A stretch of 64,000 nt of DNA from Candidatus Eiseniibacteriota bacterium (GCA_963702435.1 CAVPCR010000005.1:145721-209720); one strand, 5' to 3'. Numbered from the stretch's first letter, positions 2,068 to 35,475 are shown. The notes: generated by a model from the letters alone, not told the origin. Numbers and translations are program-made.

Positions 2068-4317
2068 TCAGTCTGTGCGCACGACCTTGACGGCGGCGCG
2101 GTGTCCGCCGCGCTCGAGCGACAGGAAGTAGACGCCCCGCGCCGCGGTGCGCCCCCGCGTCGTCCCGTCCCACGCTGCCTGCCAGCGCGACGGTCCAGAA
2201 GCCGTGATCGCGAGCGGGGCGACCCGGCGACCGCCGGCGTCGAAGACCGCGCCCTCCGGCGGCGTGGCCGCGTCGGCCGCACGGGTCGCATCGACGGCGA
2301 GGACGATCGCCCCGCGCGCAACGAGCGGGGTGAGCGCGCGCAGGGACGCCCCGGGCCCGAGATCGCCCGCAGCCCACGACGCACCCCCGGCGCCCGATCC
2401 CTCGGCCACCGCCGACGACCCGGCAAACTCCGCGACGAGGATCACGCTCGCCGCTCCCGCCGTCACGAAGCCCGTTTCGGTCGCCACGACGCGTTCCGGC
2501 CCCTCGGTCCACGGGAGGTCGATCGGCGCCCAGGTCACGCCGCCGTCCGTCGTCCGCCAGACGACCGGATCGAGGACGCTGCAGGCATAGCCGACCGCTT
2601 GGTCGCGGAAGCTCAGATCGAGGTTCCCCTCGGCGTTGACGCGCGTCCAGGTCGCGCCGCCGTTCGTCGTCCGGTGGATGCCCGCGAAGCTTGTGACGAG
2701 CCCGGTCGCAGCGTCGAACCAGTGCATGCCGCGGATCGGGTCCGAGATGAGTCCGACCTGGCCCACCGGCGTCCAGTTCGCCCCACCGTTGGTCGTCCGG
2801 TAGATCGCCGCACCGGAGCTGCCGCCGGCGACATAGCCCGTCAGCGCGTCGACGAAATCGATCGCGTCGAGACGCACCGCGGCCGAGAGACCGGTGCTCG
2901 CCGGGAACCATGTCGCCCCGGCGTCGGTCGACGCATAGACGTAGTTCACGTTGGTCCCGCCGTAGAGCGCGGCGTAGCAGCGCGTGGCGCTCCCGAAGTC
3001 GATGTCCACGGCGCTCCCCACGTAGTTCGGCGCGAGCGACTGCGTGGTCCAGGTTGTACCGCCATCCGTCGTGCGCGAGACCCAGCTCGCGCCCGCCGTT
3101 CCATAGCCGCCGACGAGCCCGACCTGGTCGCCGGAGAAGGCGAAGACCTGCGGCACCGGGATCGCCGGCGCGCTCGGCATCGGCTGCCAGCTCGCGCCAC
3201 CGTCCGTGCTTTCGAGGTAGGCCACGCCGGCACCGACGCGCACGTCGCCGCCGGCAAGACCCTTGCCCCCGGGCAGGAAGATGAGCGCCTCGAGCACGGC
3301 GCGCTCGCCGTCCCCGGGCGACTCCGTGAAGTTCGCCCACGTCGCGCCCTCGTCCATGCTCCGGAGGAGGTCGCCGTCCGTGCTCACGGCGACGAGGGCG
3401 CCGCCCGCAAGGCGCTCGATATCCGTGTAGCCGCGCGTCGAATCACGCCGATAGAGTCGCGTCCAGTGGAGGCCGTCGTCCTCGGTTCGCCAGATATCGG
3501 CCCCTTCTGCCTCGGTGACGACGAGGCGGCGGTTCACATCGAGGATGACCGCCTCCTCCTGATAGATCGGGCTCGAGCCGAGGGAGCCGTGCCGCGGGAA
3601 CCACGAGGCGCCGCCGTCGGTCGTCCGGTAGGTGGTGAAGTCGAGGCAGATCCAGCCGTTCTGCGCATCGAGGAACTTAACGTCCCCGGGGAACGAGTGG
3701 TCCTCGCTCGTGCCGGGCACCGCGGTCCAGGTGGCGCCGCCGTCGGTGGTCTGGCGGAGGAGGAACGGTCCGACCACATAGCCGTGGCTCGACGTCCGCC
3801 AGGCGTGGTCGACGATATCCCAGCTCGGTCCCGGGTTCCCGAGGAGCTGCCAGGTCGCGCCGTCATCGGTGGAGCGGAGCACTTGACCGTTATCCCCCAC
3901 GGCGGAGAGGGTCGCGCCGCTCACGCGGACCAGCGAGCGAAGAGCTCCGTGCGATGGATTGGCGACCGGGGCGAAGGTCGCCCCGCTGTCGGTGGACCTG
4001 AAGATGCCGGGCGCGCCGCCGACAGCGAGGACCGCGCCGGGAGCGATCACGAGCACGTCGTGAAGATCGGTCGAGAACGCCGTCAGGTCCGTGCGATCCA
4101 CCCAGGTCATGCCGCCGTCGCTCGTCGTGAGGTGGGTCCCGAGGAGACCGACGGCACAGCCGATCTGGCTGTCCTCGAAAGCGACGCCTTCGAGCCCGTT
4201 CCCTTGCGGATGCGGATTGCCCCAGATGAAGGTCGGGGGCTCGGCGGCACCGCTTGCCGCGCCGAGGAGGAAGACGAGGCCGACGAGAAACGGGAACGCG
4301 CGGGGTGACGAGAGCAT
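2068..4317 (-). CDS. BNR/Asp-box repeat beta-propeller protein (GH74/Ycf48-like) with signal peptide and T9SS C-terminal sorting domain
   Basis: At least 8 S-x-D-x-G-x-T-W repeats (TTDGGATW, STDGGASW, TNGGANW...). N-terminal signal peptide MLSSPRAFPFLVGLVFLLGAASGAAEP with a GGAGG RBS. The C-terminus (GVYFLSLERGGHRAAVKVVRTD) resembles the Por_Secre_tail domain. Confidence 0.7.
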   Translation of the reverse strand: MLSSPRAFPFLVGLVFLLGAASGAAEPPTFIWGNPHPQGNGLEGVAFEDSQIGCAVGLLGTHLTTSDGGMTWVDRTDLTAFSTDLHDVLVIAPGAVLAVGGAPGIFRSTDSGATFAPVANPSHGALRSLVRVSGATLSAVGDNGQVLRSTDDGATWQLLGNPGPSWDIVDHAWRTSSHGYVVGPFLLRQTTDGGATWTAVPGTSEDHSFPGDVKFLDAQNGWICLDFTTYRTTDGGASWFPRHGSLGSSPIYQEEAVILDVNRRLVVTEAEGADIWRTEDDGLHWTRLYRRDSTRGYTDIERLAGGALVAVSTDGDLLRSMDEGATWANFTESPGDGERAVLEALIFLPGGKGLAGGDVRVGAGVAYLESTDGGASWQPMPSAPAIPVPQVFAFSGDQVGLVGGYGTAGASWVSRTTDGGTTWTTQSLAPNYVGSAVDIDFGSATRCYAALYGGTNVNYVYASTDAGATWFPASTGLSAAVRLDAIDFVDALTGYVAGGSSGAAIYRTTNGGANWTPVGQVGLISDPIRGMHWFDAATGLVTSFAGIHRTTNGGATWTRVNAEGNLDLSFRDQAVGYACSVLDPVVWRTTDGGVTWAPIDLPWTEGPERVVATETGFVTAGAASVILVAEFAGSSAVAEGSGAGGASWAAGDLGPGASLRALTPLVARGAIVLAVDATRAADAATPPEGAVFDAGGRRVAPLAITASGPSRWQAAWDGTTRGRTAARGVYFLSLERGGHRAAVKVVRTD

Positions 4318-4414
4318 GGTGGTGAGCCTCCGGGACGGGTGCGACGCGCGACGTGACTGCGGCGTGTGGCTAGATTGTAGATTGCGCGCGGCGGACGGAC
4401 AAGGGTCGGCCGCT

Positions 4415-4804
4415 TCAGGATCGGCGTGTTCGCGGCGCGGGGCGGGGCGCGGAGTTCCGAGACGACCGGCGGGGTGCATAGCGATAGCGTGCGAGCGCCA
4501 CGCGCCCCGCCGGATCGAACTCGATGCCTTCCTTCTCGAGCAGAAACTGCTGGGCGAGACCGCCGCCGGGTTCGGAACGCTCGAGACTCAGGCGGCCCTG
4601 GGCATTCAGTATGCGGTGCCACGGCACGGTCGAACCCGTCGGCAGCGCATGGAGCGCATAGCCGACGAGGCGGGCCTGACCAGGGAAGCCGGCGAGCGCG
4701 GCGATGTCGCCGTACGTCGCTACCCGCCCGCGCGGCACCCGGCGCACCGCCGCGTGGATACGCCGGTGGGTTTCACTCAGCGGCCGGCCGCCCGCGCTCG
4801 CCAC
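4415..4804 (-). CDS. atl: alkyltransferase-like protein (MGMT DNA-binding domain, active-site Cys replaced by Trp: PWHR), copy 1
   Basis: VPRGRVATYGDIAALAG...LVGYALHALP...VPWHRILNAQGRL matches the Ogt/MGMT C-domain, but with PWHR instead of PCHR, as in Atl proteins. GTG start. Confidence 0.75.
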   Translation of the reverse strand: MASAGGRPLSETHRRIHAAVRRVPRGRVATYGDIAALAGFPGQARLVGYALHALPTGSTVPWHRILNAQGRLSLERSEPGGGLAQQFLLEKEGIEFDPAGRVALARYRYAPRRSSRNSAPRPAPRTRRS

Positions 4805-4818
4805 CGCCTACGCGCCGT

Positions 4819-5532
4819 CTACCTGAAAAGCGTCTTCAGGGCGCCCCAGGTCCGATCCTCGACCGCCGTCGCGCAGTTCGTGTCGCTCGTGTCGTAGAGA
4901 TCGTCCCCGTCGTTGTCGAGTCCCTGCGCAGCCCCGGCGAAGTTCTCACTCCCGTTTCCGTTGCACGACTGGGTCGGCATCGCGGGGTGCCCCGTGCCCG
5001 GGCTCGCATAGTACGGCGGCAGGACGTTCTCGCCGACCGGAGTGTAGTTGGCCGGATTGGCGTCCAGGTGGCAGTTGCTGCAGACCGTCGCGCCCGCGTT
5101 CTGGTGATGCTGGCGCAGCCCCGCTCCGTAACCGGAGCGCCCGGCGCCGACCTCGGGATTCCCGGCAACATTATCCTCGGAACGGCCGTGACAGCCCATG
5201 CAACCGATGGCCTCGAGCCCCGTCCCACCGTTCGACTCATCGAGGATCACAGGAAACGTGTCGGCGCCGTGGCACGCGTCGCAATCGCCGCCCAGCATGG
5301 TGGTGCGGTGTACGTTGTGCAGGTTACCCCAGTTCTGGCCGTCCACTGGCGAGACATACGCGGTCGCCCGGAAGTCACCGTGGCACGAACCGCAGTTCGA
5401 GGAGTCCCCGCCATAGGTCGTGTAGGCGGTGCCGGAACGACTCGATGCGAGAAGCGCGATGAGCGCCAGGAAGCAAGCAGCGATGATGCCGCTCGATATC
5501 CAGCGTCCCCGGGCAGTGATCACCTTTTCCAT
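4819..5532 (-). CDS. secreted tetrahaem c-type cytochrome, copy 1
   Basis: Four CxxCH motifs (CGSCH, CDACH, CMGCH, CSNCH). N-terminal signal peptide. GGGAGGTG RBS before ATG 5532. Confidence 0.75.
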   Translation of the reverse strand: MEKVITARGRWISSGIIAACFLALIALLASSRSGTAYTTYGGDSSNCGSCHGDFRATAYVSPVDGQNWGNLHNVHRTTMLGGDCDACHGADTFPVILDESNGGTGLEAIGCMGCHGRSEDNVAGNPEVGAGRSGYGAGLRQHHQNAGATVCSNCHLDANPANYTPVGENVLPPYYASPGTGHPAMPTQSCNGNGSENFAGAAQGLDNDGDDLYDTSDTNCATAVEDRTWGALKTLFR

Positions 5533-5606
5533 TTGACGCCACCTCCCTGTAGCCATGGAAACAAGGCAGGACCGGACCGAGTAGGCCCTTGTCAGCCGGG
5601 GGCAGA

Positions 5607-6083
5607 CTAGCAGGCCGGATGACCGAAGGCAACGGCGGGCCGGCGGGCGCTCGGACGCCGTGCCGAGTTCGCTTCAATCGAGAAGGACGAGCTTCCGCGC
5701 CGCGGCGTAGACGGGCGCGCGGGGCGAGGCGCGGGGCTGGGTGCTGAGCGGGGCGCGTACCGATAGCGCGCGAGCGACAAGCGCCCCGCCGGATCGAACT
5801 CGACGCCTTCCTTCTCGAGCAGGAACCGCTGGGCGAGACCGCCGCCGGGTTCGGAGCGCTCGAGGCTCAGGCGCCCCTCCGCATTCAGGATGCGGTGCCA
5901 TGGCACGGTCGACCCCGCCGGCAACGCATGGAGCGCGTAGCCAACGAGCCGGGCCTGACCAGGGAAGCCGGCGAGCGCGGCGATGTCGCCGTACGTCGCT
6001 ACCCGCCCGCGCGGCACCCGGCGCACCGCCGCGTGGATACGCCGGTGGGTATCACTCAGCGGCCGGTCGCCCGCGCTCGCCAC
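5607..6083 (-). CDS. atl: alkyltransferase-like protein (PWHR), copy 2
   Basis: More than 90% identical to copy 1 over the MGMT-like domain. The C-terminal tail is divergent. Confidence 0.7.
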   Translation of the reverse strand: MASAGDRPLSDTHRRIHAAVRRVPRGRVATYGDIAALAGFPGQARLVGYALHALPAGSTVPWHRILNAEGRLSLERSEPGGGLAQRFLLEKEGVEFDPAGRLSLARYRYAPRSAPSPAPRPARPSTPRRGSSSFSIEANSARRPSARRPAVAFGHPAC

Positions 6084-6097
6084 CGCCTACGCGCCGT

Positions 6098-6820
6098 CTA
6101 CCTGAAGAGCGTCTTCAGGGCGCCCCAGGTCCGATCCTCGACCGGCGTCGCGCAGTCCGCATCGAACGTATCGCGGAGATTGTCGCCGTCGTTGTTGAGT
6201 CCCTGCGTGGCCCCGGCGAAGTTCTCGCTCCCGTTCCCGTTGCACGATTGGGTCGGCATTGCGGGGTGCCCAGTGCCCGGGCTCGCGTAGTACGGCGGCA
6301 GGACGTTCTCGCCGACCGGAGTGTAGTTGGCCGGATTGGCGTCCAGGTGGCAGTCTGCGCAGACCGTCGCGCCCGCGACCTGGTGATGCTGGCGCAGCCC
6401 CGCTCCGTAACCGGAGCGCCCGGCGCCGACCTCGGGATTTCCGGCAACATTATCCTCGGAACGGCCGTGACAGCCGACGCAGCCGATCGTGAGCAGACCG
6501 GTACCTCCAGCGGACTGGCTCAGCAGCACGGGAAAGGTATCGGCGCCGTGGCAGGCATCGCAGTCACCGTTCAGCATGTTGGTGCGGTGTACGTTGTGCA
6601 GGTTACCCCAGTTCTGGCCGTCCACTGGCGAGACATACGCGGACGCCCGGAAGTCGCCATGGCACGCGCCGCAGTTCGTGGCGTCGCCTCCGTTCTGCGA
6701 GTACTGGGTGTACGCGTTGCCGGACCGACTCGAGGCGAGAAGCGCGATCGCGGCGCACAAGCAAGCGATGAGAATTCGGCGAGACATGAAGCGTCCCCGA
6801 GCAGTGATCAGCTTGTCCAT
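6098..6820 (-). CDS. secreted tetrahaem c-type cytochrome, copy 2
   Basis: CGACH, CDACH, CVGCH, CADCH. SRRILIA-type signal peptide. GGGAGGTA RBS. Close paralog of 4819-5532. Confidence 0.75.
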   Translation of the reverse strand: MDKLITARGRFMSRRILIACLCAAIALLASSRSGNAYTQYSQNGGDATNCGACHGDFRASAYVSPVDGQNWGNLHNVHRTNMLNGDCDACHGADTFPVLLSQSAGGTGLLTIGCVGCHGRSEDNVAGNPEVGAGRSGYGAGLRQHHQVAGATVCADCHLDANPANYTPVGENVLPPYYASPGTGHPAMPTQSCNGNGSENFAGATQGLNNDGDNLRDTFDADCATPVEDRTWGALKTLFR

Positions 6821-6960
6821 CAGACGCTACCTCCCTGTAGCCATGGAACGAACACGCGACCGTGGCCAGACCATTCCCAGCCGGGGGCAGGGTAGCAGGC
6901 GGTTACCGCCGACGGCAACCGGGGCCCGGGCGGACGCGGCGGTCCCGCGCGGAACCTGCC

Positions 6961-9900
6961 TCACTCCAGAACGACGAGCTTCCGCGCGGCGACGTAGCCC
7001 GGCGCGCGGAGCTCGTAGAGGTACACCCCGCGCCCGACCGCTCGACCGGCATCGTTCCGGCCGTCCCACACGACCGCGCGCCCGCCGGCAATCGGCTCCT
7101 GCTCCTCGTCCACGAGCGTCCGCACGAGGCGCCCGCTCACGTCGCAGATGCGGAGGGTGACCCGTCCGCGCGTCGCGATCGAGTAGCGGATCGCGGTCCC
7201 CCGCCGCGACACCGGATTGGGCGCCACCGCGGCGAGCGCGTTCACGAGGCGCGGCGATGCCTCGGGCCCGACCCCGATCGGCCCCGCGTTCACCGGCTGC
7301 CCGGCCCACTGGAAGAGATCGATCAGGAGCTCCGCGTTCGCGCCGTTCACGACGAAGTTGTCGAACAGGCACTGCTCGACGCAGTCGAGCGGCAGGAGCT
7401 CGGCGAAGGCGAAGCTCATCGTCACCGACTTCTCGCACGAGTGATTCGGGTTCGTCTTCCGCACGACCGCCTGCCAGGCGGGGCGCGCGACATCGTCCGC
7501 GCAGTTCACGGGGTCGTGGCCGTCCTCGAGCGACTCGACGAAGTGGGCAACCGGCTCGCCCGAGTTGATCGCGCCGAGGACGTTCAAGTCGACGTCATCG
7601 GGGCAACCCGATCCGAACGCCTCGCCCGCGAAGTCGGGTGCAAGCGCGGTCCCGGCGAGCCGCGCGCAGCGGCGGAGGTCGTTCGCAGCGAGTTGCTGAG
7701 CGTAGTCGCGCGCAAGCACATCCACACCGCGGTTGGCGAGGAAGGAGGGCCCATTGGTGGTGTTCTGGTCGATGTCGGCGGCCCAGCCCGTGCCCTCGAC
7801 GAGAAGGAGCCGCGGGTTCCCCTCGCTGCAACCCGCGAGCCACGTCTCGAGCTTCTGCTGGTCCATGGATGGCTGGCCGCCGAAGAGGGAGAGCGTGCGG
7901 CGGTCGCTCAGCGTGCGATGGTCGCTGAGACCCGCCGTGTACCAGATGCAGTCGTACCCGGCCAGCATGAGGTCGGTGGCCCCGTTGTGCGGCGGTCGCG
8001 GCTGCTGGGTCGGCCGATCCTCCCGCCGGCCGATCCCGTCGTAGCATTCCGAGTAATTCGTCGCCACGACATCGTAGACGTCGAAGCCGAGGCCGAGACT
8101 CGAGAGCGTCGCGACGAGGCGCTCGCGTTCCACCGTCGCCCGCCCCGGCACGCTCTGTGTGGCGTAGTCGCTGACGACGAGCATGCTGTGCGCATATGCC
8201 CCGCTGCAGTCCGGTGCGAGCGACGGCAAGACGTTCGACTGGAGCCAGAGTCCCTTGCTGCTTGGCTCCGTTGTGATCGGCTGCCGTCCGCGCCCGAACG
8301 GGAATGTCCCGAGGACCTGACTCGATACCGCATCCCGCGCCTCGAAGAAGTAGTAGACAGTCGTCCCCGGAGTGAAGAGGCCGTCGGGCAGTATGTCGTC
8401 GCAGGGCTCGTTCCCCGGCGGGGCGCCGGTCCAGTGGGTCCCGTTCCCGGCGTCCGCATCGTGGAAGCAGGTCATGTACCCGCCCGGCAAGCCCCCACCG
8501 TACCAGCGCGCCGTGTCCATCCGCGCCTCGTGCCAGAGGAGAGCATCGGGAAAGCTCCCGGGCGCCGACGGGGGGAAGGCGGCGAAGAACGGGTGCATGA
8601 GATTCGGCTGGCAGGCCCCGCGCTCCACGGCGAAGCGGAGGAAGACCGCTGCGTTCGGGGCTTGAACCTCGACTCCGGCCGTGTCGGGACGCACCCAGCG
8701 GGGGGGATTCTCGGGCCCGCCGAACACCGGGGTGTACGCCCCGTCCATCCGGGCCGTGGCGGAGAGCGGGAATCCCGTGTTCGAGGTCGGGAAGCTGTCC
8801 GCGTAGCGCTGGTAGGTCTGCGCCCGCAGCTCTGTGCTCGAGTCGTAGACGCCGAAGCGCATGTTGTCGATGAAGGGACCGCTGGCATCGCTCGGGTTGC
8901 ACGACCCGCCGATGCATTGCGAGTACATGCCCACCGCGAGGATCACGGAGTCCGCCGTCGCCGGCAGGTAAGAAGACATGTCATGGAGGAGATCCTGCTG
9001 GCAGCGCGCCCCGGCCCCCAGCGCGAAGGACTGGCAGCTTGTCGCGGAGACGCTCGACCAGTTGAAGATCGCGCCCGCTCCGGGCGAGCCGGGCGGCGGA
9101 GCGTAAGGGCAGTGATTGGCGTCGACCGGCCAGTAGTGGAAGCAGACGACGAACATGGCATCGAAGAGCCCGCTGCCGCCGTCGGCATACACATCGCCGA
9201 GGAAGAGCCGGCCTACATCGCCGTCGAGGTCGGGATGCGCACCACCACCGATTGCGAAGGGCGGAGAGACGGCGGCGGTTTTCGCCACGTGCGCCGCGCA
9301 TTCGTCCTGATCGGCGAAGAGGAGAACGTTACCCTCGATCGCACAGGCCTCAGGGCAGGGGACGACCGGCGGACAGGCGATGGCGGAGAGCGGCGCGATG
9401 CGCCCCGCGGGCCGGAGTGGATCGCCGGTCAGGACGACGTCCTGCCCCTCGCAGCGCCGGGGCTCCCAGCCGCTCATGCCCGTCTCGAAGTCGGCCCGGT
9501 CGATCGGCATGCCGTTCGCCCGGACCGCGATCTCATCCACCTGCCAGGCAAAGAGAAAGGCCCGGCCCGCGGACTCGTCGGAGACGAGATCATCGGTGGC
9601 CAGCCGGAGCCGGACCCAGAGATCCCCTTCGCCGCCAGGCCAGGGGCCGAGGGTCGCCGAGCCCGGTCCCCCAAGCGGCCCCGGCTCGGGCGCGACGAGC
9701 GTCCCGCCGGTCCAGATCCCGTTCCCGTTGGCTACCGTCCCGACCTGCTCCCACCGCACGCCGTCCGCCGAGATCTCGACCCAGCACGTATCGTGGCTCT
9801 GCTCGACCGCGTAGCGATGGAAGAACGTGAGATCGAGCAGCGCGTTGGGTGCGGGCGGCATGAACTCCCCGGGGCCCGGCGCGTTCCGGAAGCGGAACTG

Positions 9901-10506
9901 CTTCGCGACCGCCTGCGACCAGCCGTCGCCGTATCCCGCGGTTCCCCCCCAGCCGCAGTGCTCCGGGTTCAGGTGGAGGTTCGTCCCGATCCACACCGAC
10001 CAGCCGCCGGCGAGCGGGTCGGGGCCGTCGTTCGCCCCGTTGTTGGCGTGCGTCGTCGCCCGGTGCGCGAAGGCGCCTCCATCGAAGTCGAAGTCGTACG
10101 TGCCGTCGGTTCGCCAGTGTCCCGTACCGAGCGCCGAAGGACCGTCGCCATGTGTCGTCAGGTCTGCGAACGTCCACCCGTCGCGGTACTGGTTCCCGAC
10201 CGGATCCCCATCCAGGAAGAACTCTGGCGCCTCGCCCGAGTCGGCCTCCCAGTTCCACACGCCGCCGCGGACGACAGCCCCGTTGCCGAAACCGCTCCCG
10301 CCGAACCACACCGTGTCGGCATGGGCGTCGAGCCACCCCGGGTCGTGTGCTGCGAGCGCCTCGCGGTCCGCTGCCCCGTCATAGGGTTGTGGAACGAGCG
10401 GCACGGCGCCCGCCGGCGCAGCGGCCAGAAGAAAGGAGAGAGCGGCAAGAGGCACGGCACGGCAGTTCCATGTGGCCATGGCAGCCTCCACTGTGACCTG
10501 GCCCAT
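6961..10506 (-). CDS. giant secreted protein of unknown function with T9SS C-terminal sorting domain, paralog 1
   Basis: Signal peptide (MATWNCRAVPLAALSFLLAAAPAGA). About 1180 aa with many conserved Cys. The C-terminal about 80 aa (RYSIATRGRVTLRICDVSGRLVRTLVDE...VVWDGRNDAGRAVGRGVYLYEL...KLVVLE) fits the T9SS CTD. No HExxH or other recognisable catalytic motif. Confidence 0.65.
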   Translation of the reverse strand: MGQVTVEAAMATWNCRAVPLAALSFLLAAAPAGAVPLVPQPYDGAADREALAAHDPGWLDAHADTVWFGGSGFGNGAVVRGGVWNWEADSGEAPEFFLDGDPVGNQYRDGWTFADLTTHGDGPSALGTGHWRTDGTYDFDFDGGAFAHRATTHANNGANDGPDPLAGGWSVWIGTNLHLNPEHCGWGGTAGYGDGWSQAVAKQFRFRNAPGPGEFMPPAPNALLDLTFFHRYAVEQSHDTCWVEISADGVRWEQVGTVANGNGIWTGGTLVAPEPGPLGGPGSATLGPWPGGEGDLWVRLRLATDDLVSDESAGRAFLFAWQVDEIAVRANGMPIDRADFETGMSGWEPRRCEGQDVVLTGDPLRPAGRIAPLSAIACPPVVPCPEACAIEGNVLLFADQDECAAHVAKTAAVSPPFAIGGGAHPDLDGDVGRLFLGDVYADGGSGLFDAMFVVCFHYWPVDANHCPYAPPPGSPGAGAIFNWSSVSATSCQSFALGAGARCQQDLLHDMSSYLPATADSVILAVGMYSQCIGGSCNPSDASGPFIDNMRFGVYDSSTELRAQTYQRYADSFPTSNTGFPLSATARMDGAYTPVFGGPENPPRWVRPDTAGVEVQAPNAAVFLRFAVERGACQPNLMHPFFAAFPPSAPGSFPDALLWHEARMDTARWYGGGLPGGYMTCFHDADAGNGTHWTGAPPGNEPCDDILPDGLFTPGTTVYYFFEARDAVSSQVLGTFPFGRGRQPITTEPSSKGLWLQSNVLPSLAPDCSGAYAHSMLVVSDYATQSVPGRATVERERLVATLSSLGLGFDVYDVVATNYSECYDGIGRREDRPTQQPRPPHNGATDLMLAGYDCIWYTAGLSDHRTLSDRRTLSLFGGQPSMDQQKLETWLAGCSEGNPRLLLVEGTGWAADIDQNTTNGPSFLANRGVDVLARDYAQQLAANDLRRCARLAGTALAPDFAGEAFGSGCPDDVDLNVLGAINSGEPVAHFVESLEDGHDPVNCADDVARPAWQAVVRKTNPNHSCEKSVTMSFAFAELLPLDCVEQCLFDNFVVNGANAELLIDLFQWAGQPVNAGPIGVGPEASPRLVNALAAVAPNPVSRRGTAIRYSIATRGRVTLRICDVSGRLVRTLVDEEQEPIAGGRAVVWDGRNDAGRAVGRGVYLYELRAPGYVAARKLVVLE

Positions 10507-10513
10507 GTCGTCC

Positions 10514-13500
10514 TCACTCGAGCACGACGAGCTTCCGCGCCGCCGCGTAGCCCGGCGCGCGGAGTTCGTAGAGATACACCCCGCGTCCGACCGCGCGCCC
10601 GGCGTCGTTCCGCCCGTCCCACACCACCGCGCGCCCGCCGGCGATCGCCTCCTGCTCCTCGTCCACCAGTGTCCGCACCACGCGCCCACTCACGTCGCAG
10701 ATGCGGAGCGTGACCCGCCCGCGCGTCGCGATCGAGTAGCGGATCTCGGTCCCCCGCCGCGCCGCCGGGTTCGGCGCCGCCGGGGCGAGCGCGTTCACGA
10801 ACCGCGGGGTTCCCGCCGGCGCAACCCCCACCGGCGCCGCGTTCACCGGCTGTCCCGCCCACTGGAAGAGATCGATCACCAGCTCCGCGTTCGCGCCGCT
10901 CACGACGTAGTCGTCGAACAGGCACTGCTCGATGCAGTTCAGGGGCAGGAGCTCGGCGTAGGCGAAGCTCATCGTCACCGACTTCTCGCACGAGTGATTC
11001 GGGTTCGTCCGCCGCACGACCGCCTGCCAGGCGGGGCGTGGCACGTCGTCCGCGCAGTTCACGGGGTCGTCGCCGTCCTCGAGCGACTCGACGAAGTAGG
11101 CCACCGCCTCGCCGCCGCCCGTCGACGCGAGTACGCTGATCGGGATGTCGTCGGGACAGCCCGAGCCGAACGCCTCGCCCTCGAAGTCGGGCACGAGCGC
11201 GGTCCCGGCGAGCCGCGCGCAGCGCCGGAGGTCGTTCGCAGCGAGTTGCTGAGCGTAGTCGCGCGCGAGCACGCCGATGCCGCGATTGCCGAGGAACTGC
11301 GGGCCGTTCACCGTGTTGGACTGGATGTCCGCGGCCCACCCCGTGCCCTCGAGGAGGAGGAGACGCGGGCTCCCCTCGCTGCACCCCGCAAGCCACGTCT
11401 CGAGCTTCTGCTGGTCCATGGACGCCTGGCCGCCGAAGCTCGGGAGCGTGTTCCGGTCGCTCAGTGTCCCGAACTGGCTCAAGCCCGACGCGTACCAGAT
11501 GCAGTCGTACCCGGCGAGCATGAGATCGGTGGCCCCGTTGTACGGCGGCCGCGGCTGCTGTGATGGCCGGTCCTCGCGGCGTCCGATCGTGTCGTAGCAC
11601 TGGTTGTAGTTGGTGCTGACCGCATCGTAGACGTCAAACTCGAGTCCGAGCGAGGCGAGCGTCGCGGTGAGGCGGGAGCGCTGCGTCGTCGCTCGGCCCG
11701 GCACGCCGCCGGTCGCGTAGTCGTTGACGATCAGCATGCTGTTGGCGTAGGTGCCGTCGCAGGCCGGCGCCAGCTCGGGCAGGTTGTTGATCTGGAGCCA
11801 GTAGTCCTTGTGGTTGGCCGTCGTCCGCACGATGCCGCGGTTCCTCGCGAGGGGGAACGTGGCGACGACGCTGCCGGCGCCGGCCCCCGCGGCGACCCGC
11901 GCCTCGAAGAAGTAGTAGACGTTCGTCCCCGCGGTGAAGAGGCCGTCCGGCAGGATGTCGTCGCACGGCTCGACCGCCGGCGGCGCGCCCGTCCAGAACG
12001 TCCCGTTCCGCGGATCGTCCTCGTGGAAGCAGGTCATCCAGTACCCGTTCACGGTCTGCGAGTTGCTCATCGCTTGCGCCGTGTCCATCCGCGCCGCGTG
12101 CCAGTTGAGGTCGTTCGGAAAGGTGCCGGGAGCGGTGGGCGGGAAGGCCACGAAGAACGGATGGGTCAGGTTCGGCTGGCATGCGCCGCGCTCGACCGCC
12201 CACTTGAGGTACACCGCGGTGTTCGGAGCGGCAATGGCAGTGGCCGCCGAGTCGGCACGCACCCAGCGCATCGGGATCTCGATGCCGAGCGACATGGAGA
12301 GGCTGAAGGCGGCGTCGGTGCGGGTGGTCGCGGCGAGCGGGAAGCCCGTGTTCGAGGTCGGGAAGTTGTCGGCAAAGCGATCGAGGGTGTTCGACCGCAG
12401 GGCGGGGCCGCTCGGGTCGTACACGCCGAAGCGCACGTTGTCGATGAAGGGGCCGGTGGCGTCGCTCGTGAGGCACGATGCGCCGTCACACTCGGCGACC
12501 ATGCCCAGGGTGAGGATCACCGAGTCGGCGCTGGCCGGGATGAACGCCGACCAGTCGAAGGTCATGTTCCACATGCAGTGGATACCCGCCCCGAGTCCGA
12601 TGATGTGACAAGCGCCGTCACCGCCCTGCTGCGACCAGTTGAAGACCGAGCCCCCGCCGGGCGATCCGGCCGGCGGCGCGTACGGGCAGTGATTCTCGTC
12701 GAAGGGCCAGTAGAGGAAGCAGAAGTAGAGAGCCGTATCGAAGAGCCCGCTCCCGCCGTCCGCGTACGCATCGGCCTCGAGGATCCGCCCCGCGTCGCCA
12801 TCGAGGTCGGGATGGGCGCTGCCGCCGATCGCGAAGGCCGGGGAGAAAGCCGCTGTCGTCGCCTCGTGGGCCGCGCACTCGTCCTGGTCCACGAAGAGGA
12901 GAATCCGATCCTCGATGGCGCAGTTCTCGGGGCAAGCGACCAGTGGCGGGCCAGGCGGGCAGGCGATGGCGGAGAGCGGCGCGATGCGCCCCGCGGGCCG
13001 CTGCGGATCCCCGGTCAGGACGACATCCTTCCCCTCGCAGCGCCGCGGCTCCCAGCCGTCCATGCCCGCTTCGAAGGTGGCCAGATCGATCGGCGCCCCG
13101 TTCATGCGGAGCGCCAGGTCGTCCACCTGCCAGGCGTAGAGATACGTGCCGCCCGCGCTCTCATCGGAGAGCAGGGCATCGGTGGCGAGCCGGAGGCGGA
13201 CCCAGAGATCCCCCTCGCCGCCGGGCCAGCGACCGAGGCTCGCCGAGGCCGGTCCGCCGAACGGCCCCGGTTCGGGCGCGGCGCGCGTCCCGCCGGTCCA
13301 GATCCCGTTCCCGTTGGCCGCCGTCCCGACCTGCTCCCACCACACGCCGTCCGCCGAGATCTCGACCCAGCACGTGTCGAAGTTCTGCTCGACCGCGTAG
13401 CGATGGAAGAAGGCGAGATCGAGCGTGGCATCGGAAGGCGGCGGCGGGAACTCCCCGGGCCCGGGCGCGTTCCGGAAGCGGAACTGCTTCGCGATCGCCT

Positions 13501-14065
13501 GCGACCAGTAGTCACCATACCCCGCCGTCCCCGGCCACGCGCAATGCTCCGGATTCAAGTGGAGGTTCGTCCCGATCCACACCGACCAGCCGCCGGCGAG
13601 CGGATCCGGGCCGTCGTCCACGCCGTTGTTGGCGTGGGTCGTCGCCCGGTGCGCGAAGGCGCCGCCATCGAAGTCGAAATCGTACGTGCCGTCGGTCCGC
13701 CAGTGCCCCGGGCCGAGGGCGGAGGGCCCATCGCCGGCCGTCGTCAGGTCATCGAAGGTCCAGCCGTCGCGGTACTGGTTCCCGACCGGATCCCCATCGA
13801 GGAAGTACTCCGGGGTCTCGCCGGAATCGGCCTCCCAGTTCCAGAGGCCGCCGCGGGCGACCGTGCCGTTCCCGAGCCCGCTCCCGCCGAACCACACCGT
13901 GTCGGCGTGGGCGTCGAGCCAGCCTGGGTCGCGCGCAAGCACCGCCTCGCGATCGATGCCGGCGTCATACGGTTCGAGCACGGGGCGCGCCGCGCCGGCC
14001 GGCGCGGTGGAGACGAGAAGCGAAAGGACGGCCAGAAGGCCGGCGCAGCGGATTCCCGCGGTCAT
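10514..14065 (-). CDS. giant secreted protein with T9SS C-terminal sorting domain, paralog 2
   Basis: About 70% identical to paralog 1 along its length. Signal peptide MTAGIRCAGLLAVLSLLVSTAPAGAA. GGTGGAGGG RBS before ATG 14065. Only an 8-nt gap to paralog 1. Confidence 0.65.
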   Translation of the reverse strand: MTAGIRCAGLLAVLSLLVSTAPAGAARPVLEPYDAGIDREAVLARDPGWLDAHADTVWFGGSGLGNGTVARGGLWNWEADSGETPEYFLDGDPVGNQYRDGWTFDDLTTAGDGPSALGPGHWRTDGTYDFDFDGGAFAHRATTHANNGVDDGPDPLAGGWSVWIGTNLHLNPEHCAWPGTAGYGDYWSQAIAKQFRFRNAPGPGEFPPPPSDATLDLAFFHRYAVEQNFDTCWVEISADGVWWEQVGTAANGNGIWTGGTRAAPEPGPFGGPASASLGRWPGGEGDLWVRLRLATDALLSDESAGGTYLYAWQVDDLALRMNGAPIDLATFEAGMDGWEPRRCEGKDVVLTGDPQRPAGRIAPLSAIACPPGPPLVACPENCAIEDRILLFVDQDECAAHEATTAAFSPAFAIGGSAHPDLDGDAGRILEADAYADGGSGLFDTALYFCFLYWPFDENHCPYAPPAGSPGGGSVFNWSQQGGDGACHIIGLGAGIHCMWNMTFDWSAFIPASADSVILTLGMVAECDGASCLTSDATGPFIDNVRFGVYDPSGPALRSNTLDRFADNFPTSNTGFPLAATTRTDAAFSLSMSLGIEIPMRWVRADSAATAIAAPNTAVYLKWAVERGACQPNLTHPFFVAFPPTAPGTFPNDLNWHAARMDTAQAMSNSQTVNGYWMTCFHEDDPRNGTFWTGAPPAVEPCDDILPDGLFTAGTNVYYFFEARVAAGAGAGSVVATFPLARNRGIVRTTANHKDYWLQINNLPELAPACDGTYANSMLIVNDYATGGVPGRATTQRSRLTATLASLGLEFDVYDAVSTNYNQCYDTIGRREDRPSQQPRPPYNGATDLMLAGYDCIWYASGLSQFGTLSDRNTLPSFGGQASMDQQKLETWLAGCSEGSPRLLLLEGTGWAADIQSNTVNGPQFLGNRGIGVLARDYAQQLAANDLRRCARLAGTALVPDFEGEAFGSGCPDDIPISVLASTGGGEAVAYFVESLEDGDDPVNCADDVPRPAWQAVVRRTNPNHSCEKSVTMSFAYAELLPLNCIEQCLFDDYVVSGANAELVIDLFQWAGQPVNAAPVGVAPAGTPRFVNALAPAAPNPAARRGTEIRYSIATRGRVTLRICDVSGRVVRTLVDEEQEAIAGGRAVVWDGRNDAGRAVGRGVYLYELRAPGYAAARKLVVLE

Positions 14066-14115
14066 GGCAACCCTCCACCTGTGGCCGGGACGGTCTCTTC
14101 CGTCGGCATAAATAC

Positions 14116-14132
14116 TGCAAGCATTGTGCCGA
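14116..14132 (-). promoter_or_regulatory. sigma-54 (-24/-12) promoter upstream of the giant paralogs
   Basis: The minus-strand sense reads cGGCACaatgcTTGCAg: a GG-N10-GC geometry matching TGGCAC-N5-TTGCW, about 50 nt upstream of ATG 14065. Confidence 0.55.
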
Positions 14133-14272
14133 GTCGGGGCTGTTTCTTCCAACGCTCGCATCGGCGATGACTTGCGTTTCCTGGTGACCGACGCAGCTTC
14201 CTGCGCCGGGCACGCTGTGTCATGGACATGACACTCCCCGGGGACCGGTATCTACAATGGCCATGTGAGATC

Positions 14273-17035
14273 TCATCGCACGATACCGTGGCGCCTCATC
14301 CTGGCGATGAGCGTCGTCCGCTTGAGGCCGAGCGCCGCCGCCGCCGCGCTCTGGTTCCAGTCGGCGTCCATCAGCGCCTGGATGATGCGGCGGCGCTCGA
14401 GCCGGCTCAGCTCCTCGTCGAGGGCGAGATGCTCTGCGGCATCCGTTCGCCTCCCGGCGCTGGCGGCGAGGTCGGCGGACAGGAGATCGAGACCCACCTC
14501 GCGATGGCCTCCGGCGAGGGCGACCACCCGCCGCACCTCGTTCTCGAGCTCGCGCACGTTCCCCGGCCACGGGTAGCTGAGACATGCCTCCCGCGCCGCG
14601 GGCGAGAAGCGGAGCTGGGGCTTGCCGGCCGCCGCGGCGTAGGCATGGAGGAAGTGATCGAGGAGAAGACCGATGTCCTCGATCCGCTCCCGGAGCGGCT
14701 TGAGCTCGATCACGACCGTTGCCAGCCGGTAGTAGAGATCCCGCCGGAAGCGGCCGGCGCGCACATCCTCCTTCAGGTCGCGGTTGGTCGCCGAGATGAC
14801 GCGGATGTCCGCCCGACTCATGGCGGACTCGCCGATCCGCCGGAAGTCGCCGGTCTCGAGGAAACGAAGGAAGCTCACCTGCACTGGGAGCGGCATCTCC
14901 CCTACTTCGTCGAGGAAGAACGTGCCGCCGTCGGCCGCCTTGAGGAGCCCCTTGCGCTCGCGATCGGCGCCCGTGAACGCCCCGCGCGTGTGGCCGAAGA
15001 GCTGGCTCTCGAGAAGCTCCTGCCCGAGACCGGTGGGGATGAGCGGCACGAAGGTGCCGCTTCGCCGCGGACCGGCGGCGTGGATGGCGCGCGCGACGCG
15101 CTCCTTCCCCACGCCGGTCTCGCCGAGGATGAGCACCGGCACATCGGAGCTGCCGAGGCGCTCGACCTGCTCGAGCACTTCCAGCATCGCCGGGCTCTGT
15201 GCGATGAAGGTCCCGCTCAGGAGAGTGGTCCGCTCCGCGTCCCGCCCCGGGCTCGATCCCGGCCGCCGGCCACCGGAGACGGACGCGGCGGCGACTCGGA
15301 GCCCGGCCGCACGTCCGGGCTCGTCGGCGCTCGCGCGCTCGGCCGCGCGGGCGAGCGCGTTCGCCTCCTCGTTCATGCGCTGCCGATCCGATGACAGCCC
15401 TTCCGCGGCGAGGACCGGGCGCGCGCGATCGAGCATGGCGCGGGCTCGATCGAGCATGCCGGCCCTGATCTGCAGGCGCGCCCGCACGAGCTGGCAGCGG
15501 GCCACCCCGAGGGCGAGCCCGAGCTCGGCGAAGATGCGCTCGGCCTCGGCCAGCACCACGAGCACGTCCTCGATGGGCATCGCCGCCGACCGCACCTCGA
15601 GCTCGGCCAGGCGGAGGAGCGAGTGGGGAAGCTCCGATTGCCGGCCGGCGGCCCGGAGAAGGTCGACCGAACGATGGATCTCGGTGGCGGCGCGGTCGAG
15701 ATCTTCACGCTCGATCGCAAGATCCGCGAGCACGCGATGCGTGAGCCCCTCCTCGACGCGATCGCCAGCGGTGCGGGCGGCGCTGAGCGCCAGCGCGGCG
15801 TCCGCGGCGGCGGGATCGAGCCGGGCCAGGGCGAGGTGGGCCTCCGCCCGCCGGCGAAAGGCGCCGGCCGCATTCCGCGGGTTGTCGCGATCGAGCCAGC
15901 CCACGAGCGCGTCGAAATGGCGAAGAGCTGCTTCGTGCTCCCCGCGCGCCATCGCCAGCTCCCCGGCGACCGCCTCCAGCCACCCCCGGATCCGATCGTT
16001 CACCTCGCCCGCGGCCCGTTCCGCCTCGGCGCAGATCCCGGCGGCCTCCCGGAAGCGGCGCCGGAATACGCAGAGCCTCGCGAGCGAGATCAGCGGGTCC
16101 ACCGTGGCGCGCCGGCTGCCGCTCGCCTCGTGCACGCGGATGCTCTCCCGGAGATTGGCTTCCGCCTCGTCCCATTTCCCCATCGCCATGTTGACGATGC
16201 CCAGATTCAGGAGCACCGCCCCCGCCCGGGCTCCGCTCTCGCCGGCGCCGATGGCTGCGGCGCGCCGCAGGTAGTTGTGCGCCGACTCGACATGCCCGGA
16301 GAGAAGCGACACGATCCCGAGGTTCGAGAGGAGTTCGAGCATCCGCGGGCGGCGGTCCCGCGCGTGCTGGAACGAGTAGGCGTCGAAGAGCAGATCGAGA
16401 GCTTCATCGGGACGCCCGGCCACCGAGGAAGCGATGCCCAGGCACTGCCGGGCGTCGGCCGCCGCGCCGGGCCAGTTCTCGGCGAGCGCCAGGTCGAGCG
16501 CCCGGCGCGCCGGCTCGAGGGCGGCCGGCTCCCGATCGTCCTGGATCGCGAGCCATGCGGTCGCGAGCAGGCGGCAGACCGCAGCTGGAAGCGGGGGTGT
16601 GGGACCGAGGATCTCATCGGCCGCGCGCACGTGGTCCCGCGCCTCGTCGGAGGAGTTCGCGCGCGCCAGCAGGGAAGCCAGCCGGTAGCGAACGATCGCC
16701 ACCTCGACCGGAGGAGCTGCGCCCGCGTGGGCGGTGAGCCACTCCCGGTATGCCTCGATGGCCGCGTTCCCCCGGCCCTGATCGCGAAGGTCGTCGGCGA
16801 GCCGGCGGGATGCAGCGGCCAGGAGGAGGTGGTCTCCCTCCCTCCTGGCGCGGGCGGCGAGCAGGACGAGCCGGTCGCGGTCGGGAGGCGCCTCGACGAG
16901 ATGCAGATCGAGGTCGGGATCGGCCGCACGGGCCCGGGGTGACACCGGAGGGGGCGCTGGGGCCATAGCGTCAATCTTTCGACGTGGCGTCATGGACTTG
17001 ACACCTACTCGATTCTCCCAGGACAGCGGGTCCAT
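14273..17035 (-). CDS. sigma-54-dependent transcriptional activator (bEBP) with N-terminal TPR repeats, AAA+ domain and C-terminal Fis-type HTH
   Basis: GETGVGKE Walker A, GAFTGA sigma-54 contact motif, and RRDLYYRL. C-terminal AAAALGLKRTTLIARMRRHGI helix-turn-helix. GGGAGGG RBS before ATG 17035. Alternative starts at 16993 and 16966. Confidence 0.85.
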   Translation of the reverse strand: MDPLSWENRVGVKSMTPRRKIDAMAPAPPPVSPRARAADPDLDLHLVEAPPDRDRLVLLAARARREGDHLLLAAASRRLADDLRDQGRGNAAIEAYREWLTAHAGAAPPVEVAIVRYRLASLLARANSSDEARDHVRAADEILGPTPPLPAAVCRLLATAWLAIQDDREPAALEPARRALDLALAENWPGAAADARQCLGIASSVAGRPDEALDLLFDAYSFQHARDRRPRMLELLSNLGIVSLLSGHVESAHNYLRRAAAIGAGESGARAGAVLLNLGIVNMAMGKWDEAEANLRESIRVHEASGSRRATVDPLISLARLCVFRRRFREAAGICAEAERAAGEVNDRIRGWLEAVAGELAMARGEHEAALRHFDALVGWLDRDNPRNAAGAFRRRAEAHLALARLDPAAADAALALSAARTAGDRVEEGLTHRVLADLAIEREDLDRAATEIHRSVDLLRAAGRQSELPHSLLRLAELEVRSAAMPIEDVLVVLAEAERIFAELGLALGVARCQLVRARLQIRAGMLDRARAMLDRARPVLAAEGLSSDRQRMNEEANALARAAERASADEPGRAAGLRVAAASVSGGRRPGSSPGRDAERTTLLSGTFIAQSPAMLEVLEQVERLGSSDVPVLILGETGVGKERVARAIHAAGPRRSGTFVPLIPTGLGQELLESQLFGHTRGAFTGADRERKGLLKAADGGTFFLDEVGEMPLPVQVSFLRFLETGDFRRIGESAMSRADIRVISATNRDLKEDVRAGRFRRDLYYRLATVVIELKPLRERIEDIGLLLDHFLHAYAAAAGKPQLRFSPAAREACLSYPWPGNVRELENEVRRVVALAGGHREVGLDLLSADLAASAGRRTDAAEHLALDEELSRLERRRIIQALMDADWNQSAAAAALGLKRTTLIARMRRHGIVR

Positions 17036-17128
17036 GACAAGGCCCTCCCTGCGCTGGGCAGGGAGGGCCTTGCACTGACCTGAGGTTCGGGCCGCGGTCG
17101 GGCCGCTGTCGGCCTCCTGCGGCTCGGA

Positions 17129-19210
17129 CTACCGGATCCGCGTGACCTTGCCGGTGGCTTCGAACCCCGTGCTGGACAGGCGATACAGGTAGATGCCCGC
17201 GGGCAGATCGTTCCCGCGCGCATCCCGGCCGTCCCAGCTCACCATCCCCGGGCCGGCGCCGATACGACCGTCGATGAGCGTCCGCACCAGTCGCCCGTCG
17301 GTCCCGTAGACCCGGAGCGTCGCCGGTCCATCCTGCGGGACGACGAAGCTGATCGTCGTCGCGCTCATGAATGGATTCGGCCGCACCGAGACCTGCGTCA
17401 GGCCCGGAGCCGTTCCCGGATCCTCGATGCTCGTCGGGCCGTCGGGAGGCGTGGTCGTGAACCGCAGCGCGCGCCCGGCCGCGAGCCCATGCGCCGCCGC
17501 GTTCAGATGACCACTCGCCAGGTACTGGATGCCGACCGTCTCGGTCTGGTTCTCGATGCCGACCGTGCACCCGGAGGCATCGCTCACCACCGCGTACTGG
17601 ATGTCGATCTGCCCGTCTCCGGTCTCGGTCGGATGCATCGCCGGATTGTAGAGAATGAACTGGAGGGTCTCCGGCACGCCGAGCCCGGCGTCGTGGTAGT
17701 GCTCCACTCCGCTGAACTCGACGATGTAGCGACCGCCCGCGGCATCGTCCCACGCGTAGACCTTCCCGCTGCCGGCGGCTGCCGGGTTCAGGTCGGTCCA
17801 GAAACCGGCGATCATCTTCGGCGGTCCCTCGGGGCCGGGGATCGAGCCGTTCGAGACCGCGTACTCGGTGGTCGCCCCGAGGGCCAGGAACCCGTTCGAG
17901 GAGATCGAGATCCGATTGTCCACGTTGCCGTACAGCTTGAAGCTGAACGACATGGTCCGCTGTACGGTCTGATCATCACCCAGCGAGACCAGGGTTCCCG
18001 GTCCGCCCCGCGTGGGATCGATCTCCACCCAGTTGTAGGTCGGCCGCGGAACATTGCCCGGCCCGTCCACGTCCTCGTACGCGTAGTAGCCGTAGCTGTC
18101 CGCTCCGATCGGGTCGGTGGGCGAGCCGACGCCAAGAGTCAACGTCGTCTGCTTCGTGTAGCCCCCAGCCGCCGCCAGGTCGAAACTGAAGGGGATCTCG
18201 TATCCGTACGGCACTGCGAGGACCACGCTCAGCGCGAAGGGATCGGCGCTGTTGTCGCCGGTCGCCAGGTACGCGATGTCGGGCCAGGTCCCCGCACCGT
18301 CGGTGACCGTCGCATTGGCATCGCTCGTCGACAGCGCCCCGGCGATCGTGGTTGCACCGACCGGATTCAGGTTCATGAGCGTGAGCGCGATCTCGGCGTC
18401 CTCGCCCGGATCGAGCCGGCCGTTCCCGTTGCCGCCCGCGGTGTCGTCGATCACGACACTCGAAACGACGAGCTCGGGCTGATCGAGGTGGAAGAAGATC
18501 TTCGCCGCCTGGTGCACTTCCTTGGTGGCGTCGTCCTGCACGAAGACCACGCACTCGAGGTTCCTCTCGACCCAGGCCGGGCCGAGCGCGAAGGTCTGCG
18601 TCCGCGTGACCGGCACGCTGGGGGCGAACGTGATGACCTCACCGGTTGGCGCGGGGAGGAAGTCACGCATGCCGTGGTTCAGCGTCTGCGGGAGCCGGTA
18701 GGTCGAACCGGCCGGCGGGGCCACACCGCTCTCGGTGATCGCGAAGCGCAAAGCCCCCGTCACGGGGGCGCCGCTCGTGTTCGTGATCTCGGCCGTGATG
18801 GTGCCGGCGACGCGATCCCCGCTCAGGTTGATGCGGAGCGGGCTCGGCATCGCCGCTCGATCGAGGACCATCTGCTCCCAGGCCCCGCCGGAAGTGCCGT
18901 CGACAATGCCGTCGAAGTAGGTGTGTGGCGTGTAGCTGACGCTGTAATAGGTGATGCGAGCCCGGTTCTCGTCGATGTTGGCCTGATAGAACGGATCCCC
19001 GATGCCGGGCCACCAGGCGTGAACGGCGATGGTGGCGACCATCTCGGGATGATTCGCAACGATCTGGTCCAGCACACGGCTGGCTGCTGGGCAGCCTGGT
19101 CAGGATGTGTTCGTGAACTCCTCGATGAGAACCATCCTGGGCTCGGCCGTGGCCAGGCTCGAAAGCCCGATCACCGCCACGAGCGCTCCGGCGAGTGCAA
19201 GCGTCCTCAT
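17129..19210 (-). CDS. T9SS-sorted thioredoxin-like protein with an in-frame TGA (candidate Sec codon at 19100-19102) in a UxxC active-site motif
   Basis: ATG 19210 with a GGAGGT RBS. Signal peptide MRTLALAGALVAVIGLSSLATA. Then VLIEEFTNTS-[TGA]-PGCP aligns with the EEFTxTWCGxCP thioredoxin-like motif. The frame continues into the 17129..19075 ORF. The C-terminus (PNPF..TTISF...LRVYGTDGRLVRTL..WDGRD..G..LPAGIYLYRL) is a classic T9SS CTD. Confidence 0.6.
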
Positions 19211-29768: not shown

Positions 29769-29862
29769 AGCCCACGTTCCGGTTGCCGCCGCGCCCCCGA
29801 GGTCCTACCATCGACCCCTTGCCCACCACGACCCCGTTCACCCTGTTCGACTTCACTCTACG

Positions 29863-35475
<5,613 letters not shown>

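Follow-up and report, generated by a model that had tools for sequence, protein, structure and literature searches.

A 64-kb stretch of contig CAVPCR010000005.1 from Candidatus Eiseniibacteriota bacterium (GCA_963702435.1, positions 145721-209720), with a GC (guanine plus cytosine) content of 70%, carries on its minus strand two neighbouring copies of a two-gene cassette, each of which consists of a gene for a tetrahaem cytochrome c (cyt1, cyt2) followed by a gene for an alkyltransferase-like (ATL) protein (ATL1, ATL2). This whole stretch is called the window, and all coordinates are counted from its first letter. We regard it as likely that the locus arose by a genuine, not recent tandem duplication of ~1.285 kb, in which the cytochrome and ATL genes were copied together as lineage-restricted neighbours.

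Repeat units, junction and relic

Direct-repeat detection revealed adjacent head-to-tail copies with a period of 1279-1288 nucleotides (nt), and in the best local alignment positions 4422-5720 match positions 5703-7007 with 85% identity over 1326 columns, 48 of them gap columns, far more than expected by chance. The tandem duplication of a two-gene cassette that an earlier note on this DNA had proposed is borne out by both approaches. The identity of more than 90% at the DNA level that was claimed in the same place does not hold for the unit as a whole, as 50-nt windows of the alignment range from 64 to 100% identity and 93% is found only in a 300-nt core of the ATL genes. The gene order on the minus strand is giant2, giant1, cyt2, ATL2, cyt1, ATL1 and a BNR/Ycf48-like gene, in which giant1 and giant2 encode giant cargo proteins of the type IX secretion system (T9SS). 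Unit 2 lies upstream with respect to transcription and comprises the final ~45 nt of giant1 followed by a 140-nt leader, by cyt2 and by ATL2 as far as the junction. Unit 1 lies downstream and comprises a relic of the giant 3' end followed by a leader of 141 nt, by cyt1 and by ATL1 as far as the end of the homology, which stops ~20 nt short of the ATL1 stop codon. Unit 1 is syntenic with a cassette present in a single copy on the related contig L164. The features of the locus, all on the minus strand and given as open reading frames (ORFs) where they encode proteins, are as follows:

giant2, 14161-10514, minus strand: ORF
giant1, ORF from 10689 with a likely start near 10479-10506 and the stop at 6961, minus strand
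Genuine giant1 3' end, 6961-7009, minus strand: T9SS/FlgD_ig C-terminal domain, from which the relic derives and which forms the left breakpoint of the segment that was duplicated
Duplication unit 2, 5721-7005, minus strand: local alignment and repeat families D2, D4, D9 and D10, boundaries read from the sequence
cyt2, 6820-6098, minus strand: ORF with four CxxCH motifs
ATL2, 6083-5607, minus strand: ORF with PF01035
Relic of the giant T9SS-cargo gene 3' end (RAPVYAAARKLVLLD and stop), 5674-5723, minus strand: repeat family D8, alignment and motif count
Duplication unit 1, 4436-5720, minus strand: repeats, local alignment, junction sequence and synteny with the L164 cassette
cyt1 leader, 5533-5645, minus strand: conserved with the leader of L164 (L164:2372-2485) and with the unit 2 leader at 6821-6899
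cyt1, 5532-4819, minus strand: ORF with four CxxCH motifs
ATL1, 4804-4415, minus strand: ORF with PF01035
BNR/Ycf48-like gene, ORF 4479-2068, minus strand: probable signal-peptide start near 4317

The relic lies in an ORF at 5674-5901 (minus strand) that ends in RAPVYAAARKLVLLD before its stop codon, and giant1 ends in RAPGYVAARKLVVLE; at the DNA level the sequence 3' of the ATL2 core, CGCCCCGCGCGCCCGTCTACGCCGCGGCGCGGAAGCTCGTCCTTCTCGATTGA, matches the final codons of giant1, CTCCGCGCGCCGGGCTACGTCGCCGCGCGGAAGCTCGTCGTTCTGGAGTGA. The distance from the relic stop codon to the ATG of cyt1 is 141 nt and that from the giant1 stop codon to the ATG of cyt2 is 140 nt, which places the relic in register with the unit. 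In a six-frame translation of the window this type of C-terminus occurs only three times, at the end of giant2, at the end of giant1 and in the relic. Repeat family D8 aligns 5633-5725 with 6920-7012 (72%) and with 10473-10565 (60%). The relic of the last codons of the giant gene is thus present as had been described, and the junction sequence and the register confirm that it marks the duplication breakpoint.

The tail of ATL1 is homologous to ATL2 as far as the hexamer CCGCGC (~4435-4440), the same hexamer is present at the giant1 breakpoint, and the CCGCGC microhomology at the junction is located at ~5716-5723. The occurrence of CCGCGC at both ends suggests that the duplication was formed by microhomology-mediated illegitimate recombination. 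We propose that the ancestral order on the minus strand would have been giant T9SS-cargo gene, cytochrome, ATL and BNR/Ycf48-like gene, and that illegitimate recombination at CCGCGC might have fused the end of the ATL gene that encodes the protein tail to the final ~45 nt of the giant gene. This would have created a second cytochrome-ATL copy, a dead relic comprising the last 15 codons of the giant gene in register 5' of cyt1, and an ATL2 gene without its stop codon, from which ~40 extra codons would be read. Since then both copies have been retained by purifying selection, and they have swapped or imported segments via gene conversion or recombination, which accounts for the patchwork of 64-100% identity.

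The duplicated genes and their leader

Both ATL genes start at GTG exactly 14 nt after the cytochrome stop codon and both encode the sequence VPWHRILN. ATL1 (4415-4804, minus strand) has 129 amino acids (aa), including Y31, R45, W62 (within PWHR) and R76, and ATL2 (5607-6083, minus strand) has 158 aa with its core at 5757-6083; the last ~40 codons of ATL2 are read out of frame across the junction and the relic, since the original stop codon was lost at the junction. In a Pfam scan PF01035 is matched at residues 12-94 with 83.4 bits in ATL1 and 82.8 bits in ATL2 (cutoff 27), and neither an AGT (alkylguanine-DNA alkyltransferase) N-terminal domain nor any other domain was detected in the two proteins. 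The best solved relatives of ATL1 are vpAtl from Vibrio parahaemolyticus (2kif; 2.9e-24) and Atl1 from Schizosaccharomyces pombe (3gva; 2.9e-16), with AGT/Ogt chains following at E 2.3e-8 or weaker, and the ATL score lies under the NCBIfam ogt cutoff (44.9 vs 46.4). By alignment Y31, R45, W62 and R76 correspond to Y25, R39, W56 and R69 of S. pombe Atl1, i.e., to the flipping Tyr, the Arg finger, the Trp in the place of the acceptor Cys and the pocket Arg, and VPWHRILN aligns with VPWHRVIN of Atl1; the positions of Y31 and R45 are invariant in 80 ATL relatives. These residues, together with the lack of transfer activity and a direct interaction with UvrA and UvrC, define the ATL family (PMC10779285).

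Judged by sequence, ATL1 and ATL2 agree with the family in every feature that can be read at this level, and they are classed as canonical ATLs. This is in line with the earlier identification as ATLs in which Cys is replaced by Trp (PWHR): the Trp is found in both copies, solved ATLs are the best matches, and the Arg finger and Tyr pocket residues are conserved in the alignment to Atl1. Homologues that retain Cys, which had been thought to turn the gene into an ordinary Ogt, are irrelevant here, since in the window proteins this position is itself Trp and the best solved matches are ATLs. By analogy with characterized family members, the proteins would bind O6-alkylguanine, flip it using the Tyr and the Arg finger and pass the lesion to UvrA/UvrC nucleotide excision repair, and they would be unable to accept the alkyl group owing to the Trp in the place of Cys.

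The cytochrome cyt1 (4819-5532, minus strand; 237 aa, with a further upstream ATG at 5556 in the ORF) carries the motifs CGSCH, CDACH, CMGCH and CSNCH, and cyt2 (6098-6820, minus strand; 240 aa) carries CGACH, CDACH, CVGCH and CADCH; both are identical to database proteins (P0001, start at 5532, for cyt1 and P0002 for cyt2). The four motifs per copy and a match to Pfam Cytochrom_c3_2, marginal with 29.4 bits for cyt1 and 30.2 bits for cyt2 (cutoff 25), uphold the proposed identification as tetrahaem cytochromes, and further marginal Pfam matches were obtained to Cytochrome_C7 (23-25 bits) and Mtrc-MtrF_II-IV (27-28 bits). Across 20 homologues the four CxxCH motifs are invariant, as are H80, H83, H151, H190 and M87, and the eight invariant His residues, enough for bis-His ligation of four haems, are compatible with such a coordination. 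To judge by eye, the N-terminus has basic residues followed by a hydrophobic stretch, with SGTA/SGNA ahead of the mature part.

Homologues of these cytochromes number 629 at E <= 1e-3, many of them with FlgD_ig/T9SS domains, and stem from Eisenbacteria, Krumholzibacteria, Acidobacteriota, Myxococcota, Phycisphaerae, Gammaproteobacteria and Nitrospira. The family is characterized by an acidic GLDNDGD...C module and by a conserved C-terminal WGxIKxLFR tail, and its C-termini are interchangeable, comprising the short WGxIKxLFR tail or, in longer members, T9SS/FlgD_ig, MYXO-CTERM or dockerin-type ends. Domain scans detected no C-terminal Por/FlgD_ig sorting domain in cyt1 and cyt2, both of which end in WGALKTLFR; such a domain is present in ~315-aa homologues and in the neighbouring giant proteins. 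The sorting domains of the family suggest that the cytochromes may act in periplasmic or cell-surface electron transfer. The possibility that the short cytochromes arose by recent truncation of T9SS cargo was rejected, as the WGxIKxLFR ending is kept in many ~240-aa homologues from different genomes. A PDB profile search with the cytochrome alignment returned no solved relative at E <= 1, and literature searches yielded no report of this cytochrome family.

The leader of cyt1 contains GGGAGG 7 nt before the ATG. Over ~113 nt the cytochrome leader is ~70-75% conserved between both units and L164, with the conserved blocks CCTGCTA..CTGC.CCGGCTG and, just 5' of the ATG, TCCAxGGCTACAGGGAGGT. An Rfam scan of 4200-7200 gave nothing at E <= 1, and the conserved leader thus represents neither a known riboswitch nor any other known RNA. 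In the same interval no terminator-like site was found, and the promoter scan returned a single weak promoter-like site, located downstream of ATL1. From the short intergenic gaps and the terminator-free scan, the cytochrome and ATL genes are likely to be co-transcribed.

Divergence of the copies and distribution of the gene pair

A cluster-mate of cyt1, 87% identical to it, is encoded on five small contigs (L164-L168), in which the cassette is present in a single copy in the order Omp28-like/FlgD_ig gene, cytochrome, 13 nt, ATL and BNR-like gene. L164 aligns to the window at 19275-17110 (83%) and at 5645-3733 (79%). In comparison to L164 the window has 11.46 kb extra (5646-17109 versus L164:2283-2371), located between the Omp28-like gene at 17129-19075 and the leader of cyt1, with the boundary 113 nt upstream of cyt1; this segment, which may have been inserted in the window or deleted in L164, contains a gene for a TPR/sigma-54 enhancer-binding activator (14273-17035), giant2, giant1, cyt2, ATL2 and the relic. 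An origin of the relic from the orthologue of the L164 Omp28-like gene was considered and rejected, as the L164 gene ends in AGKITRLR and the orthologue in the window is intact. Synonymous (dS) and non-synonymous (dN) divergence, calculated by the Nei-Gojobori method, is as follows:

cyt1-cyt2: dS 0.37, dN 0.105, dN/dS 0.29
ATL1-ATL2, whole alignment: dS 0.27, dN 0.051, dN/dS 0.19
ATL1-ATL2, core: dS 0.19, dN 0.034, dN/dS ~0.18
Either window copy vs L164: dS 0.49-0.76, dN 0.072-0.132, dN/dS 0.11-0.19

Both copies are under purifying selection, and dS between the copies is about half of the divergence from L164, which is the nearest related contig. With dS at 0.37 between the cytochromes and at 0.19-0.27 between the ATLs and with a conflicting, clustered phylogenetic signal, the duplication cannot be called the recent event for which it had been taken. 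The conflict is most easily followed along the cytochrome gene. In codons 1-60, cyt1 is closer to L164 (21/171 sites different) than to cyt2 (41/171), and cyt1 and L164 have a 3-codon deletion in common (TTYGGDSS vs TQYSQNGGDAT). In codons 61-80 and 121-200, by comparison, only 0-6/60 sites per window separate cyt1 from cyt2, and 7-13 separate either of them from L164. Parsimony-informative sites that group cyt1 with cyt2 number 35, all in codons 61-241, and those that group cyt1 with L164 number 17, nine of them in codons 14-48; this conflict is spatially clustered (Fisher p = 6.6e-6). For the ATLs, 13 informative sites group the window copies, compared to 6 and 1 for the alternatives. A neighbour-joining tree of the whole cytochrome proteins places cyt1 with L164 and cyt2 outside. 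Any scenario requires a minimum of one gene-conversion or recombination event.

The pairing of cytochrome and ATL was found in four related lineages only, i.e., in the window, the L164 group, L004 and L169. L004 has a single-copy pair with a cytochrome of 74% identity, a 9-nt gap and a GH1 gene nearby as in the window. L169 also has a single-copy pair, with a cytochrome of 69% identity and an ATL that is not called as a gene and is clear by tblastn. This ATL lies downstream of the cytochrome at L169:1104-1590, where the only nearby ATG is in another frame; the N-terminus may be frameshifted by a sequencing error or by early pseudogenisation. Tblastn searches with both ATLs covered 75 genome loci that hold cytochrome homologues, each taken with 5-kb flanks, from Eisenbacteria, Krumholzibacteria, Acidobacteriota, Phycisphaerae, Myxococcota, Gammaproteobacteria and Nitrospira, and at none of them (0/75) was an ATL or AGT present within 5 kb of the cytochrome homologue; of 83 loci in all, only L004 matched. 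Likewise, a cytochrome was found near none of the ATL relatives at 80 metagenome loci (0/80; best ATL identity 58-64%). The pairing is also absent, as checked by tblastn, in five fairly close cytochrome relatives with 63-74% identity (L001, L002, L005 and the contexts of P0005 and P0007), which have other genes downstream. In a neighbour-joining tree the ATL-positive lineages form no supported group (40/200 bootstraps), and literature searches produced no report of a cytochrome-ATL pairing.

The pairing is limited to one shallow clade and broken within it, which is the pattern of neutral adjacency. These surveys lend no support to the earlier proposal that the pairing is biologically meaningful. 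Cytochrome and ATL, whose products belong to different compartments, are most likely functionally unrelated neighbours, and operon hitch-hiking within one small clade is the reading that we favour.

Further observations concern the surroundings of the cassette. In L004, short fragments at 6910-7137 match the 3' part of the BNR/Ycf48-like gene (window 2086-2725) and lie between a DinB_2 gene and GH1, whereas in the window pirin and dodecin genes separate the BNR gene from GH1; rearrangement among relatives therefore extends to the region 3' of the cassette. The giant genes (giant1 at 6961-10689 and giant2 at 10514-14161, minus strand) are themselves tandem paralogues encoding ~1170-1215 aa with 74.6% aa and 79.4% nt identity, and in each protein a T9SS-type C-terminal domain is the only one that can be recognised. 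As the giant genes also form a tandem pair, the locus is a small tandem-duplication hotspot. The ORF at 29644-35475 (plus strand, 1943 aa), 23 kb from the ATL genes, encodes a double-length UvrA with two full UvrA modules (NCBIfam UvrA, 2135 bits) and has internal ~1-kb repeats; UvrA is a known partner of ATLs.

Alternative explanations and comparison with known systems

Several observations weigh against the reading favoured here. The N-terminal part of the cytochromes and the protein tree leave cyt2 outside the pair of cyt1 and L164, and the duplication could accordingly have preceded the L164 split and been lost there later. The pair is kept with a gap of 9-14 nt in four lineages despite differing flanks, and its persistence at 69-75% cytochrome identity (dS ~1) is weak evidence that it behaves as a unit. 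For the cytochromes, export by a Sec-type signal peptide is predicted by eye only, and an AlphaFold2 model built from the 20-sequence alignment is unusable (pLDDT, predicted local distance difference test, 46.7).

In an older history the duplication would predate the L164 split, conversion would have homogenised the unit, and L164 would have lost copy 2, the giant genes and the sigma-54 activator in a deletion of ~11.5 kb. The first 60 codons of cyt2 with the ancestral TQYSQNGGDAT indel state and the tree that pairs cyt1 with L164 fit such a course, as does the position of the 11.46 kb, which are extra in the window exactly between the Omp28-like gene and the point 113 nt 5' of cyt1. We nevertheless regard it as unlikely: at synonymous sites overall the window copies are closest to each other, the 35 cytochrome and 13 ATL informative sites that group them stand against 17 and 6, L164 shows no trace of the relic, and an additional precise deletion is required. 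The mosaic signal would be compatible both with a duplication after the L164 split that was followed by a replacement of the 5' end of cyt2 and with an older duplication that was homogenised by conversion and lost in L164. That the tandem arrangement is an artefact of assembly, e.g., two strain variants joined into a chimera or a repeat resolved wrongly, is highly improbable. The source is apparently a metagenome-assembled contig that is present in one assembly only, and exact-sequence look-ups of the window cytochrome and ATL proteins returned no independent contig with both copies. However, the copies differ at 15% of positions and in 48 gap columns, which speaks against a collapsed or stuttered repeat, and the junction joins the non-homologous ATL tail and giant 3' end at ~6 nt of microhomology, which assemblers do not bridge. 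Moreover, the relic (72%) is more decayed than the coding parts, as expected of a real dead fragment, and the ORFs of both copies are intact and under purifying selection.

As to function, cytochrome and ATL might form a module in which, e.g., the ATL counters alkylating or nitrosating by-products of respiratory or extracellular electron transfer and the duplication raises the dosage. The intergenic gaps of 14 nt (window), 13 nt (L164) and 9 nt (L004) with the terminator-free scan, the persistence of the pair in four lineages while the flanks change, and the intact state of both genes in both copies (dN/dS 0.19-0.29) would agree with this. We consider it improbable, given that the adjacency is missing at 75/75 genome loci, including other Eisenbacteria and Krumholzibacteria, and at 80/80 ATL loci, that it is lost in close relatives, that the two products act in different compartments, and that the ATL sequence departs in nothing from ordinary ATLs. 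A clade-specific, co-regulated module, in which the ATL would shield DNA from cytochrome-linked respiratory agents and the duplication would have been retained for dosage or for surface divergence of cyt2, appears quite improbable.

The locus is a real duplication of two known kinds of gene, which is older and patchier than first claimed. It offers a clean and datable case in which an apparently microhomology-mediated tandem duplication left a relic at its junction, extended a protein by accident and was followed by gene conversion. It looks like ordinary genome evolution without a new functional system and carries little weight beyond genome-evolution bookkeeping. It also serves as a caution that tight spacing of two genes in one genome is no proof of a functional link. 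Of more use is a by-product, the cytochrome family, which is widespread, has no solved relative and bears swappable surface-sorting tails, and which may merit study for extracellular electron transfer.

The window cytochromes resemble class III (c3/c7-type) tetrahaem cytochromes and domains II/IV of MtrC/MtrF in the four CxxCH motifs and the four further His residues, with a putative N-terminal export signal judged by eye, and they differ from class III cytochrome c3 in having approximately twice its size, the GLDNDGD...C module and the WGxIKxLFR tail. The ATLs share with S. pombe Atl1, vpAtl and E. coli eATL (YbaZ) a single PF01035 domain in ~110-130 aa, the PWHR motif, the Tyr, the Arg finger and the pocket Arg. 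In contrast to these known ATLs, the window has two tandem paralogues, each directly 3' of a cytochrome gene, and ATL2 carries an accidental C-terminal extension of ~40 residues that originates from the junction. With tandem segmental duplications in general the locus has in common the head-to-tail copies, the microhomology junction, the fragment of a neighbouring gene, the mosaic identity and the single-copy relatives, and it differs from them in no way of kind.

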